Positions 1-8,176 are shown, counted from the stretch's first letter. The stretch: DNA of 64,000 bases from an uncultured euryarchaeote (GCA_963981035.1 CAXCCF010000003.1:5004-69003), one strand, 5' to 3'. Numbers and translations are program-made. The notes: generated by a model from the letters alone, not told the origin.

Positions 1-702
1 TGTCATTGTTGGTGTCTGAGGAACCTTTCGTGCATCAACCACTTCAATAATACGTGGAAGACCCATTGTTACGTTAATTGTAGCAACACCCGCATAGTGG
101 AAAGTACGCAAAGTCATCTGCGTACCTGGTTCCCCAATAGATTGTGCTGTAATAATTCCAGCAGCTTCGAATGGGTCAATACTTGCACGCTCAAGTGCTT
201 CAATAGAACCAGCGATTACTTTCTTTGCCTGAGGCTTAGTTAGTTTGTTGATTCCTCTGTCGTGAATTGCTTGAGTTAAGTCATGATAAATTCTGTCGGT
301 AAAACGTGTGCTGCCAGATTTTTCAACCGCATCAACTAATGCTTTGAAGACTGGGTCATCGGACAATGGATCTGCATACGAAAGTAATTTTGATTCAACT
401 TCATATGTTTCCATATCGACTGCAGTCTTGATAGTTGACCGCTTCTTTGCCTTCTTTAGTTTAACATTTGTAACTGGACCGGTTGATTCGCTACCTTGGT
501 CCTGCCCTTTCTTTGTTGCACCAATAATTATTGCATGAACTGTATCGCCAGTTTCTGAATCGGTTTCACAAATTTGTGCGATTTGCTGAGAAGTTAGAAT
601 TTTTACATCATCCCACTTTCGGTCATCTGCTAATACGTGTGCATAATTATCTGCAATGCCCAAATCCATTAACTTCTTCTTGGTTGCGCTCTTTACTACC
701 AT
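1..702 (-). CDS. rpoA2: DNA-directed RNA polymerase subunit A'' (N-terminal part only; the gene runs off the window start), carrying a ~130-aa N-terminal extension
   Basis: Absent from the ORF track because it leaves the window. My translation from the ATG at 702 gives [24 protein letters not shown]...[47 protein letters not shown], the conserved A''/Rpb1 motifs. The start overlaps the rpoA1 stop (TGATG). Position follows the canonical archaeal H-B-A'-A'' order. Confidence 0.9.
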
Positions 703-3700
703 CAGTTTCCACCTCCATCATGTTCTGTTGCATCTTCCCATGCACCAAGATCGTCTTCAGCGATTTCACGCTCGAAGGACTCTCTTTCAAGAACTGTTTT
801 TCCTTCAGTTCCAAGAGCATCATCAACAATTACATCGATATTAAACGGTGAACCGTGAACACCTCTTGAAGGGTCAATACCATCTTCTCCATATGAGAAT
901 TGAATAATACGGTTTGCAGTGTTACGTACTGAAAGCATGTCATCACTGTGAACCTTCAAATCATCCATTGCGTTAATCAAACGGCGTTGCATATATCCGG
1001 ACTTGGACGTACGAACCGCTGTATCTACAAGGGATTCGCGACCAGAAACAGAGAGCATAAAGAACTCTGTAGGCCTTAATCCACGCTTGAAAGAAGAATC
1101 GATGAAACCTCTTTCACTAGCACCACGTCCTCCACGTTGGAAGTGAGGTAGAACACGGTCTAGGTATCCACGTTCTAGACGCTTACCACGAACCTTTGCT
1201 TGACCGATAGAACCTGCCATCATTGTCAAGTTGTCCATGGAACCACGTGCTCCAGAAATCGCCATGTTAACCGCTGCGTTAGTTGAATTGGATTGATTCA
1301 ATTCATCCTTTGCAATATCACCAGCAGCCTGCTTACCTTCATCCAACATTACCATGATATTCTCTTCAAGAGTTTCACGCTTGGAACGACCTGGTCTTGT
1401 TTCATATCCTTTTCCATCCTTACCGAAACTTTCCAATTCTTGAGTAACCAATTGTCGAGCATCTGCATTTGCTTGCTCAATAGCATTCAATGCCTCATCT
1501 GTCAAATCTTCATCATCAATACCAGTAGTAAATCCAAGAGAAGTACAAGCTGCAATAGATAACTTGGTGAAATCATCCAAGAACTTTGCACCTAATAGAG
1601 GTCCTTTGGTCTGAACGATTTGGTCCAGCAGACGTCCGTCTTCTGCACCAATTGCACGCTTATCGAGAGTTCCAGAAACATTTCCGTTCTTGATAATAAC
1701 ATCGTCGTTAGAACGGCTACGGAAACGGATATTGATGTCATCTGGAACAATCAATGAAATGATATCCTTACCACGGAATGCATCGTTTCCATTTTCGTCT
1801 TTGACAACCTCTGGTAGACCATCGGTCCAACCGATACTTCCGAGCATTTCCAATCCGTGCTTAAATGAAATTAGTGCACCTGGGCGTGTCAATAGATATG
1901 CACCAGAAATGTGATCGTGTATTCCACCGATAACAGCACCACCATAACGTGGAGTTAGGATGTGTTCTTGTACTCTCATCAAAATCTTAGCCTCTGCACG
2001 AGCCTCTTCAGATTGAATAATGTGCAAGTTCATTTCGTCACCGTCAAAGTCTGCGTTATATGGAGTACATACCGCTAAATTGAAACGGAAAGTATGTCCT
2101 TGCATTACACGAACTTCATGAACCATCATAGACATTCTGTGAAGAGATGGTTGTCGGTTGAAAATTACTACATCTCCATCGATTAAGTGGCGTTCTACCA
2201 AAAGACCTGGCTTTGGATTTCCATTTCTGTCAACTGTTGACAATCGGTCTTCAACAAATGTTCGGTCTCCCCATTCATCTTCAGGACTTCCACAATGTGG
2301 GCAAGAAACTGAAAGGTTTTCTGGAATTGGCTCTGGGTGTACCTTGTCAGATTGTGCTAACTCCCACTTCCAGCGGTTGTGAAGAACTGCACGAGGGTCA
2401 TCATCTTCGAGAGGATGTCCATCTAAATCTTCACCACGAAGGTTAGCGATAGTTGCTTCATCATCAACCACATAATTTTCTTCAGCAATTGAACCATCAA
2501 TTCCAAGTGAAGTTTCCTTGCGGATAACTAAACCAGGTAGGAAGTTAGGTGCGTGAAGTACAGAATGAAGGTCAGGGCGCAGTGTGTTTTCTGCTCCACT
2601 CTCACGGCATTCAGGGTTTCCACAGCGGAAACCAGCATTGATCAAACGGCTACGAGCATTGATACGGACACGTCGTCCGTCACCGCGAATAATGTAGTTA
2701 ACACCAGGGTGAACATCAGGGCCACGAAGAATCATTTGTCTCATTTGCTCTCTGTTTCTTGAAGTAACACGAATTGGAACTGTTAGTTCTCTAGCGATCT
2801 TCAATGGGACACCAACTTCGTTTACACTGAGGTATGGGTCCGGAGAGATAACTGAACGAGCACAGAAGTTAACACGCTTACCAGATAGGTTAGAACGGAA
2901 TCGCCCTTCCTTACCCTTCAAGCGTTGTGTCAATGTCTTCAATGTACGACCTGAACGATGACGGGCTGGAGGAATTCCAGCTGTTTGGTTGTCAAAGTAG
3001 GTAGTAATGTGGTATTGTAATAGTTCCCACAAATCCTCAACAATCAATTGTGGTGCACCAGTGTCACGGTTTTCCCTTAGACGCTGATTGATTCTCAATA
3101 CATCGACTAACTTGTGTGTCAAATCGTCTTCTGAACGGTCACCACTATCCAATGTAATGGATGGACGAACTGTAATTGGTGGAACTGGTAATGCCTTTAG
3201 GACAATCCATTCCGGACGGTTTAACTTATCCATACCAATGAAGATTAGGTGTTCTGAAGGTATTCCACGAAGCCATTCTCTGACATCTCTAGGGTTTAGT
3301 TTCCTTTCAGTTTCCTTTCCAGTACCTGCATTATCAATTCTCTCTTTGAAAGTAGTTGGTTTGTCAAGGATAATCTTACCTTGTAGTTGATCACAATGCA
3401 TACATTGCTTTCTCTTGACACCAGAAGTTACCTTTTCAACTTCTTTGATAATCTTTGTAAATTCAGTTGAACCTACACCGTGCTTAATGATAATATCACG
3501 AATTCTTAGGCGATAGAAATCTTGCTCGGATTGCTCTTCGTTTGCTGGGTGGGAACCTGGTTCACTGTGCAATAGAATTTTGTTACAATTATTACATGTT
3601 GACTTCAAAGCAGTCTTAATCAAGTTCACGAAACCAATGTGAATTACTGGCAATTCTAGTTGAATATGTCCAAAGTGACCCGGTGATTCATCATACTTAC

Positions 3701-3905
3701 AATTGTCAGTAGGACAAAGTAATCCTGGCTCAATAACACCCATGTGAGGGTCCATCAAACCTTGCTTGTATGCGTGACCATCATCCTTGTATGTATCTGC
3801 AGTCTTTACTTCTACAGATGACATCTTGCGTATTTCAATTGGGTCCATTAGTCCGAAACGAATCTGTGAGATTCGCTTTGGTATCATTATACTTTTTTGG
3901 CTCAT
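702..3905 (-). CDS. rpoA1: DNA-directed RNA polymerase subunit A'
   Basis: 1067-aa ORF. It has the catalytic [10 protein letters not shown] loop, [13 protein letters not shown], and N-terminal zinc motifs ([17 protein letters not shown]; CNNCNK; CMHCD). The start ATG overlaps the rpoB stop (ATGA). Confidence 0.97.
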
Positions 3906-7519: not shown

Positions 7520-7525
7520 CTCCCC

Positions 7526-8176
7526 TCAGTTACCCTCTACGATTAGACGGTATGCAATTGACTTACCAGCCGACGGGGATCGGCGGATAACCTTGATAAT
7601 GCGGTCGGCAATCCAACCAGCTGGAAGTGGGGTATGGTCTGCATCAGCAGCCAAATCTGCCATGTCTGCCTTTTCTGCGGTTTCTTTAATCGCTTGGACA
7701 ACAGGGTCTGAAATCAAAACTTTTGGAAGAAGTTCCTTTGCCAGGCGGGGCTTTTCTGTTTCTTCATCCATTTCAACAATATTCCATGGAGCAAGTTCTA
7801 TGCTCTCTATTTCAAATTGTTCTTCAGCGGAGATATTTGCTGCACCTACCAATTCTTGGTGAGGCACTAATACGTGATTCAGTGCATTGAATCGAGAGGT
7901 GATTTCTGGACGATCAAAATCGTCAACAGTCTTTGCTCGAATTGTAATCTTCTTACTCTTCTTTGCTGCACGGCGACGAGAACCTTGCTCTGCAATAACG
8001 GACATTACATTGGTGAATTGCTCAGAATCTTTTGAAACACCAAGAGTTGCTGCGATATCATCGGAAGAAAGACCTTTGATATCGGTCATGTTTCTGTCAG
8101 TTGCTAACTTATGGGCAAACTCTTCGGAGACACCCAGTTCCATTAATCGCTTTTTTGTTGCGCTCTTTACCACCAT
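7526..8176 (-). CDS. rpoH: DNA-directed RNA polymerase subunit H (Rpb5-like) with a long N-terminal extension
   Basis: The C-terminus (HVLVPHQEL...LPKVLISDPVVQAI...IIKVIRRSPSAGKSIAYRLIV) fits the RpoH/Rpb5 C-domain pattern. I moved the start to the ATG at 8176 (MVVKSATKK...), because the longer track ORF (to 8215) runs to within 10 nt of the tRNA gene at 8225-8298 and would leave no room for rpoH's own promoter. Confidence 0.8.
   Translation of the reverse strand: MVVKSATKKRLMELGVSEEFAHKLATDRNMTDIKGLSSDDIAATLGVSKDSEQFTNVMSVIAEQGSRRRAAKKSKKITIRAKTVDDFDRPEITSRFNALNHVLVPHQELVGAANISAEEQFEIESIELAPWNIVEMDEETEKPRLAKELLPKVLISDPVVQAIKETAEKADMADLAADADHTPLPAGWIADRIIKVIRRSPSAGKSIAYRLIVEGN

Follow-up and report, generated by a model that had tools for sequence, protein, structure and literature searches.

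Accessory domains tethered to multisubunit RNA polymerases are a known kind of addition, of which the C-terminal domain of the bacterial alpha subunit (alpha-CTD), Rpo13 and the jaw of Rpb5 are examples. The alpha-CTD serves both in UP element DNA binding and in activator docking. Several domains of the paired helix-hairpin-helix type, (HhH)2, are heterodimerisation modules as well as DNA binders. In Sulfolobus, Rpo13 sits at subunit RpoH (Rpo5) by the entry of downstream DNA, like the eukaryotic Rpb5 jaw (PMC2675907). Archaeal Rpo5 lacks that jaw of ~130 residues, and a positively charged groove remains (PMC2675907; PMC13257274); published work describes archaeal RpoH as lacking an N-terminal extension (PMC3906176; PMC2675907). 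We analysed a 64,000-nucleotide stretch of DNA from an uncultured euryarchaeote (GCA_963981035.1, CAXCCF010000003.1:5004-69003; hereafter the window), which encodes RpoH and the beginning of subunit RpoA''. The homologues of this RpoH (n=773) are named Poseidoniales RpoH and labelled Candidatus Poseidoniales or Poseidoniaceae, i.e. Marine Group II. The Poseidoniales RNA polymerase carries two translated, strongly conserved and paralogous N-terminal add-ons, one on H and one on A''. No description of these extensions was found in the literature searched. Archaeal RNA polymerase is regarded as an enzyme with a set number of subunits (11-13), to which each add-on, a head on a leash, would contribute a tethered domain, two in all; Poseidoniales belong to the most abundant archaea of the surface ocean, and the extra domains would lie at the DNA-entry side of their polymerase.

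Paired N-terminal extensions of RpoH and RpoA''

The first ~100 residues of RpoH and RpoA'' are homologous. Both proteins start MVVKSATKK, and BLASTP aligned the N-termini with E=8e-14 and 38% identity over 110 columns. An earlier note on this DNA had reported the nine identical leading residues, which direct reading confirmed, and an alignment without gaps; the latter was a slight overstatement, because residues 1-43 align ungapped but the later basic stretch needs gaps. With the Pfam library, Rpb5_C alone was found in RpoH and Rpb1_5 alone in A''. Rpb5_C (PF01191) matched RpoH residues 136-212 with 31 bits (cut-off 23.5), and the NCBIfam subunit H model (NF007129) matched residues 141-214 with 37 bits, under its 83-bit cut-off because of insertions in the RpoH core. 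The A'' equivalog TIGR02389 matched residues 135-514 with 425.9 bits (cut-off 420.65), and the first ~132 residues of RpoA'' fell outside the model. Since the Pfam and TIGR02389 matches start late, ~100 residues of RpoH and ~130 of A'' are extra; the proposal of the same note that both subunits carry an additional, mutually paralogous N-terminal domain was thus upheld. The features of the locus (aa, amino acids; ORF, open reading frame; AF2, AlphaFold2; pLDDT, its per-residue confidence) were as follows.

7526..8176, minus strand: rpoH (RNA polymerase subunit H / Rpo5), 216 aa with the N-terminal extension; ATG at 8176 (ORF and sequence)
7982..8176, minus strand: RpoH head, residues 1-65, predicted five-helix (HhH)2/SAM-like domain (AF2 and Foldseek)
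7883..7981, minus strand: RpoH linker, residues 66-98, basic and predicted to be disordered (SRRRAAKKSKKITIRAK...; AF2 pLDDT and charge)
7529..7882, minus strand: RpoH core, canonical Rpb5 C-terminal type with lineage-specific insertions (Pfam PF01191, AF2)
8223..8298, minus strand: tRNA-Lys(UUU), directly upstream of rpoH (ARAGORN)
3902..7519, minus strand: rpoB, unsplit, ~1200 aa, between rpoH and rpoA' (ORF listing)
702..3905, minus strand: rpoA', 1067 aa (ORF and sequence)
1..702, minus strand: 5' part of rpoA'', residues 1-234 of 518 in the window (ORF and sequence)
508..702, minus strand: RpoA'' head, residues 1-65, paralogous to the RpoH head (BLASTP, profile matches, tree)
388..507, minus strand: RpoA'' linker, residues 66-105, with a basic core (sequence)

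The window start truncates rpoA'', whose complete product has 518 aa (locus L002). The order rpoH-rpoB-rpoA'-rpoA'' is the same in relatives, and the TGA stop of rpoA' and the ATG of rpoA'' overlap by one base (TGATG).

The extensions could be artefacts, either mis-called 5' leaders of genes with internal starts or products of recent gene conversion or of chimeric assembly. We consider this extremely improbable. The tRNA-Lys gene lies 46 nt upstream of the rpoH ATG, which excludes a much longer rpoH and makes the in-frame GTG at 8215 an unlikely start. Translation from internal methionines had been named in the earlier note as a possible objection; reading of the sequence showed that none of the codons ATG, GTG and TTG occurs around the beginning of the canonical RpoH domain (residues ~85-103), and both heads are conserved. 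An internal start was rejected for rpoH, which has no start codon available for it, and was considered improbable for rpoA''. In 153 rpoH orthologues the start codon occupies the same position as ATG, TTG or GTG, the latter two replacing ATG in 44/153. The RpoH peptide LMELGVSEEFAHK, from the extension, would be diagnostic for translation from the first ATG. In RpoA'', an internal M97 would give a near-canonical length, which favours the artefact, and the coupling of the rpoA'' ATG to the rpoA' stop speaks against it. Many public head-bearing "proteins" are frameshifted or adapter-chimeric fragments, as the artefact would predict; P0326, a candidate for a short free-standing head protein on a 338-kb contig, proved to be a frameshifted rpoA''. 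On the other side, both heads are conserved at the protein level throughout the order with saturated synonymous change, and the fold of the head is confident in AF2 (see below). In the module region, pairwise non-synonymous divergence (dN) was 0.08-0.29, synonymous divergence (dS) was saturated, and dN/dS was <=0.1 where computable, which points to strong purifying selection. In a tree of 20 genome-matched pairs, the H and A'' heads split into separate clades (support 100/98). The separation of the clades indicates that the duplication predates the Poseidoniaceae/Thalassarchaeaceae split and that the copies are not being homogenised. Gene conversion, or conservation at the DNA level, was therefore rejected as the cause of the nine identical residues; there are also many synonymous differences, among them serine codons AGC vs TCA or TCT. 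An artefact is effectively excluded.

Predicted fold of the head and described counterparts

AF2 models were obtained for RpoH residues 1-98, from a 55-sequence alignment containing both paralogues, and for full-length RpoH. In the former, pLDDT was ~90 over residues 1-62 and low over 66-98, and helices were predicted at residues 6-14, 18-25, 30-34, 38-45 and 52-72. In the latter, the head covered residues 5-71 (pLDDT ~85-90), the linker 68-105 (46-57) and the core 106-216 (~85-91). Mean net charge was -1.2 for the RpoH head and -2.2 for the A'' head; it was +3.4 for the RpoH linker (97 orthologues) and +6.1 for the A'' linker (79 orthologues). The predicted architecture is a five-helix (HhH)2/SAM-like head of ~65 residues and a disordered, lysine/arginine-rich leash of ~30-40 residues, followed by the subunit core. 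Disorder of the whole module, a further objection raised beforehand, was found for the linker alone, and the basic character then ascribed to the linker agrees with its positive mean charge and low pLDDT.

Among the best 50 of 95 Foldseek matches of the head in the PDB, none was significant (best E=0.38; probability up to 0.90). The leading neighbours were of the (HhH)2 type: the NusA C-terminus, the UvrC C-terminus (57 columns at a root-mean-square deviation, rmsd, of 2.2 A), FANCM/FAAP24, the N-terminal domain of RadA/Rad51 and Topo V. The (HhH)2 domains of RadA/Rad51, UvrC, NusA and XPF-ERCC1/FANCM-FAAP24 resemble the head in having five helices that superpose over 57-81 columns (rmsd 2.2-4.7 A), and the AF2 helices match (HhH)2 in lengths and order. 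However, these families differ from the head in that Foldseek E values were >=0.38, no Pfam HhH model matched and the hairpin glycines are degenerate in the head; SAM domains scored about equally well. Pfam HhH models gave no consistent match among the 55 alignment members (one sub-threshold HHH_6, zero HHH_5, PF14520). In a search of the entire genome at E<=10, the HHH_5 model found 13 loci, none of which was rpoH, rpoA'' or a third chromosomal head gene described below. One outgroup A'' head matched HHH_2 with E=0.06, under the cut-off. No significant match to the head was present in the BFVD viral fold library, and a sequence profile search of the PDB at E<=10 returned chance matches alone, with no polymerase chain. 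Hairpin 1 reads L-G-[VI]-[SADEP]; its first glycine is kept in 97/97 and 78/79 sequences and the second is absent. Hairpin 2 reads LGVS in RpoH vs C-[EGA]-[TIL]-[DS]-S in A''. The G-h-G hairpin signature thus appears degenerate in the head, with the second glycine replaced by S, A, D, E or P. The helix-hairpin-helix assignment of the earlier note agrees with the best structural neighbours but is backed by no significant match or HhH Pfam model, and SAM domains fit about equally.

These data bear on one account of function, in which each head is a true (HhH)2 binder of the DNA backbone that grips downstream or upstream DNA together with its leash, after the manner of two bacterial alpha-CTDs or of Rpo13, and in which mobile genetic elements (MGEs) reuse it as a small DNA-binding domain. 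We regard this as somewhat unlikely. It is favoured by the DNA-binding (HhH)2 domains among the best Foldseek neighbours (UvrC C-terminus, NusA, RadA N-terminal domain, Topo V), by the basic leash, by the conserved basic N-terminal patch (K4, K8, K9, plus K34), by weak, sub-threshold matches to the helix-turn-helix (HTH) of sigma-70 region 4 on helices 3-4 in 8/55 alignment members, and by the published proximity of RpoH to downstream DNA (PMC2847245; PMC2675907). It is opposed by the lack of an HhH Pfam match, the HHH_5 model finding 13 loci in the genome but not the heads, by the degenerate G-h-G signature and by the net acidic charge of the head. Residues M1 V3 K4 S5 T7 K8 K9 L11 L14 H22 L24 A25 K34 are invariant across both paralogues.

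The location of RpoH at the entry of downstream DNA, asserted beforehand, fits published structures (PMC2675907). Rpo13 of Sulfolobales and Desulfurococcales resembles the RpoH extension in that a highly basic tail comes after a small core of helices, and lies on the N-terminal side of Rpo5 at the DNA entry channel; each is a lineage-specific addition in archaea, and contact with downstream DNA is supposed for both (PMC2675907; PMC13257274). Rpo13, found in Crenarchaeota, forms a subunit of its own with 104 aa and an HTH core, whereas the head has five helices, is fused in cis to RpoH and A'' and occurs in Thermoplasmatota. No likeness to Rpo13 was found in the PDB sequence profile search (E<=10), and no Rpo13 chain was among the best 50 of 95 Foldseek matches; the resemblance is positional and architectural only. 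Like the RpoH head, the Rpb5 jaw is an extra N-terminal domain that makes a two-domain subunit at the lower jaw beside downstream DNA; the jaw has ~130 aa, another fold and rigid packing, whereas the head has 65 aa and a disordered leash. The alpha-CTD shares with the heads two copies per enzyme, a small (HhH)2-type helical domain and flexible linkers. It is C-terminal, sits on two identical alpha subunits and faces upstream DNA, whereas the heads are N-terminal, on two different subunits and on the downstream side. No homology between the alpha-CTD and the head was detectable, and no alpha-CTD chain was among the best 50 of 95 Foldseek PDB matches. Besides Rpo13 and the Rpb5 jaw, the head would be a third way, independently reached, of closing the gap beside Rpo5, and would bear on the evolution of the polymerase jaw.

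Origin of the head and its copies on other proteins

An RpoH-head query matched 40 of 41 relatives. It gave 0/43 and 0/2 in the sister families f4 and f5. Both copies were present in 49/49, 26/26 and 2/2 genomes of the three Poseidoniales families, i.e. in every Poseidoniales genome sampled, where the earlier note had allowed that the module might be absent from orthologues. Head copies in Poseidoniales are almost always two, one in a frame of ~200-250 aa and one in a frame of ~520 aa. A narrow profile (A3) found the head in Poseidoniales alone among 301 Thermoplasmatota genomes, suggesting an order-specific invention; for the A'' copy this was overturned by the N-termini of outgroup A'' proteins and by a broader profile of ten sequences (A4) run on the same genomes. 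The A'' proteins of the Marine Group III-like families f4 and f5 start MAK.DT.RAL.RRG...LAE..AD., which is the same head, followed by ~300 residues, a second (HhH)2-like stretch among them, and then by the A'' core. Those of family f7 (Methanomethylophilus alvi, Ca. Methanoplasma termitum, Methanomassiliicoccaceae) start MAKKDTLKALLKRDVSEEVAKLI...KRSSSRSTSKSKKK. Profile A4 found the A'' N-terminal head in 151/301 genomes, including 8/8 in f4, 35/36 in f7, 7/11 in f6, 3/3 in f21, 5/5 in f24 and 4/4 in f26, and none in f17 (0/35), f11 (0/9) or f30 (0/10). Outside Poseidoniales, nearly all matching genomes were single-copy (one genome had two), and RpoH frames were 81-149 aa. Because the A'' head is broadly distributed and RpoH is short elsewhere, the A'' head is ancient in Thermoplasmatota, and the RpoH head arose by its duplication before the Poseidoniales families diverged. 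Of the lineage-specific pair of arms proposed earlier, the RpoH arm stands as specific to Poseidoniales, but the A'' head does not, occurring as it does in about half of the sampled Thermoplasmatota (151/301). The A'' head is common to cultured Methanomassiliicoccales, which makes it experimentally accessible.

The RpoA'' frames of f4 and f5 are 766-860 aa long (L206, L208, L209) and comprise the head, a ~250-aa domain of no known family (GVAFPINAKQFRYPF...), the second (HhH)2-like stretch with a charged linker, and the A'' core. This decoration is larger than that of Poseidoniales and is undescribed.

With profile A4, each Poseidoniales genome sampled also proved to have a third chromosomal carrier of the head. 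This protein combines a head of ancestral type (MAKKDTYLALLRRGID...) with a coiled coil and a CPHC...CWEC zinc ribbon and measures 363-398 aa (363 in a close relative); its gene is found downstream of ksgA and of a DUF655-like gene. In the present genome the gene lies outside the window and is cut by a contig end (G000:C64:6297-6880; L212 1501-2082); it is complete in the close relative (L213 991-2082, minus strand). No Pfam or NCBIfam family matched the protein, and its head falls among the outgroup A'' heads, not with the A''/H type of Poseidoniales. This carrier shows that the head is not restricted to the polymerase, which favours an account in which the heads bring another host factor to the polymerase, for instance a chromatin protein, a factor of transcription or repair, or an enzyme that modifies its target on recognising the invariant N-terminus, and in which MGEs compete for that factor or exploit it. 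Conservation reaching residue 1, and being the same on functionally unrelated carriers, would fit such recruitment, as would the SAM-like fold, typical of protein-protein adaptors. This account seems to us quite unlikely: no candidate partner was found, and in nearly every matching genome outside Poseidoniales the only copy is that on A'', an arrangement that links the ancestral function with the polymerase.

Among 1.84 billion representative proteins, a profile search gave just 203 matches, many of them fragments or frameshifts of rpoH and rpoA''. Sixty-four proteins run from the head into sequence unrelated to polymerase; they form 24 tail groups, 12 of which have >=2 diverged members. The carrier groups include the following.

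~330-aa family with 10 members
~210-aa family with the C-terminal end FRGLGSLFG
~290-aa family
1292-aa protein
P0198, head and TFIIB-cyclin domain (PF00382, 25.9 bits)
P0205, zinc finger, H-type head and AAA_15/21 ATPase

The carriers share head residues ~1-36, and conservation collapses past residue ~36-41; they lack the basic leash and often helices 4-5. Residues 1-15 are kept at ~60-99% across the 24 unrelated groups. Between host and carrier heads there are many synonymous differences, indicating that protein sequence is what is conserved. The carriers bear on direct DNA binding in both directions. DNA-acting types occur among them (the TFIIB-cyclin fusion P0198, the AAA_15/21 ATPase P0205), as such binding would predict. 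A generic DNA binder, however, needs no such conservation of residues 1-15 across unrelated proteins, and the basic leash is missing from the MGE copies, as helices 4-5 often are. Of the DNA-tethering arms proposed in the earlier note, the tether, the fold class and the position fit, whereas the acidic heads and the MGE copies without a basic linker do not.

Neighbourhoods were examined for carriers of four tail groups, and all four were on virus- or plasmid-like contigs. The contigs are 8-39 kb long and rich in small ORFs of no known family, with one head gene each. One set encodes an N6/N4 methyltransferase, WYL, a primase-like protein, TFB, a Holliday resolvase, a Cas4-like nuclease and a helicase; a second encodes Mom, ERCC4, PCNA, ribonucleotide reductase and ParA; a third encodes ERCC4 and FEN. 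PHROGs assigned one Cas4-like and two unknown families only. The ~330-aa carrier family was absent from 201 Poseidoniales genomes. In a joint tree, every carrier head fell with the Poseidoniales type (100/99), and two were nested in the Thalassarchaeaceae RpoH clade (100/99); nesting in the host clade points to repeated capture from hosts. The sliding clamp, nucleases and ribonucleotide reductase of the contigs are typical of the replication and recombination genes of magroviruses, which encode a sliding clamp and nucleases, and in group B also ribonucleotide reductase (PMC5434244). Magrovirus group D has an archaeal-like "DNA-dependent RNA polymerase A" gene (PMC5434244). We suspect that this annotation may reflect the head, so that the head cassette may explain the group D gene. 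The N-terminal cassette of ~36 residues could serve as a sequence tag for finding Poseidoniales viruses and plasmids.

Head-fusion contigs also encode full-length TFB (Zn ribbon and TFIIB repeats) beside a Holliday-junction resolvase (L199 13728-14714, plus strand; L201 10048-10995, plus strand). The tail of P0205 was considered as an ATPase system and rejected, since in the 201 genomes it matched a ~90-aa segment alone, shared with the C-termini of large surface-like proteins. This segment (GAGYKWREDVLLRVMSAHGIDESLRDDFVRHAV...) follows the head in P0205 and recurs in ~108/201 Poseidoniales genomes (e.g. L217 142-1860, plus strand). The chromosomal ORFs with the GAGYKWREDVLLRVMSAHGIDESLRDDFVRHAV segment are surface-protein-like, 800-1200 aa long, with the segment C-terminal; their last part is an acidic run with a CxxCG...CxxCGFAF zinc ribbon, and they often lie ~2 kb from contig ends. 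The same zinc ribbon ends carrier P0186. P0170, P0181, P0185, P0265 and P0348 end ...CLLYTSPSPRD or ...SYTHLTLPTSD, which look like translated sequencing adapter. Such ends lie at contig ends and inflate the apparent diversity of carriers.

Possible docking of the heads and other features of the locus

The account of function that we tentatively place first, though we give it rather less than an even chance, is that the acidic heads are specific docking units and the leashes bind DNA non-specifically, the whole acting as a lower-jaw or gate element, and that MGEs copy the head to reach the same site. Both leashes would emerge from that module of the polymerase which lies beneath the downstream-DNA channel (Rpo5 and the Rpo1 cleft/foot), and their basic residues would touch the DNA backbone without specificity. 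The acidic heads would dock on a defined polymerase surface or on each other. Heads and leashes would then form a lower-jaw or gate element around the incoming DNA, functionally like Rpo13 or the Rpb5 jaw. Mobile elements or viruses would repeatedly have copied head residues ~1-36 onto their own proteins, and the copied head would reach the same docking site and load its carrier onto the host polymerase, or interfere with it. Docking is preferred to generic DNA tethering because the heads are net acidic and the MGE copies lack the basic leash, and because the extreme N-terminus and surface-type residues are invariant. The Foldseek neighbours of the head include heterodimerising (HhH)2 domains and SAM domains.

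Several points weigh against docking. No binding partner was found for the head, the fold matches are below significance, and an apparently (HhH)2-like fold beside a basic leash would be equally expected of a direct DNA binder. The placement of the A'' N-terminus near RpoH is presumed from the "shelf" module of Pol II (Rpb5, Rpb6 and the Rpb1 foot and cleft) and from archaeal structures. That many unrelated MGE proteins should all target RNA polymerase is an unusual scenario, and 12 of the 24 tail groups are singletons, possibly chimeric assemblies. Scans of IMG/VR with P0189, P0209 and profile A1 were empty, as was tblastn of the A''-type head against INPHARED phages, indicating that the carriers are not in catalogued viral collections. 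No capsid or other structural gene was seen in the carrier-contig stretches. The carrier DNA is "virus- or plasmid-like" at most, and "viral" is not established.

An extension of the docking account is large-scale domain mimicry, in which Poseidoniales viruses or plasmids, by heading their proteins with a copied host head of A'' or H type, would plug at least 24 effector groups into the polymerase site that normally holds its own heads. We consider this unlikely. The effectors would include the TFIIB-cyclin protein, the ATPase and the 1292-aa protein, and the mimicry, if true, would redirect or block host transcription and constitute a previously unknown, modular takeover of polymerase by mobile elements. 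The viral protein ATV ORF145/RIP reportedly binds archaeal RNA polymerase (Sheppard et al. 2016). If mimicry is true, the MGE head proteins would be like ATV ORF145/RIP in engaging the host polymerase near the DNA channel. Known viral polymerase binders are not known to be related in sequence to any host subunit, whereas the MGE proteins described here copy a host subunit domain, for which binding is predicted.

The RNA polymerase of this genome is heavily decorated in other places, with an insertion in RpoA' and insertions in the RpoH core. The Rpb5_C-type core of RpoH (7529-7882, minus strand) has ~118 aa rather than ~75-80 aa, with an extra helix at residues 117-127 and a long acidic helix at 158-177, both confident in AF2. 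RpoA' (702-3905, minus strand) has 1067 aa vs ~880-900 aa in typical archaea; its insertion is flanked by CGNPEC and a second motif and has the look of a split zinc ribbon. A divergent ORF of 496 aa (8503-9993, plus strand) adjoins tRNA-Lys and rpoH and appears to encode a HemK/Mtq2-like methyltransferase fused to a biotin-protein ligase domain.

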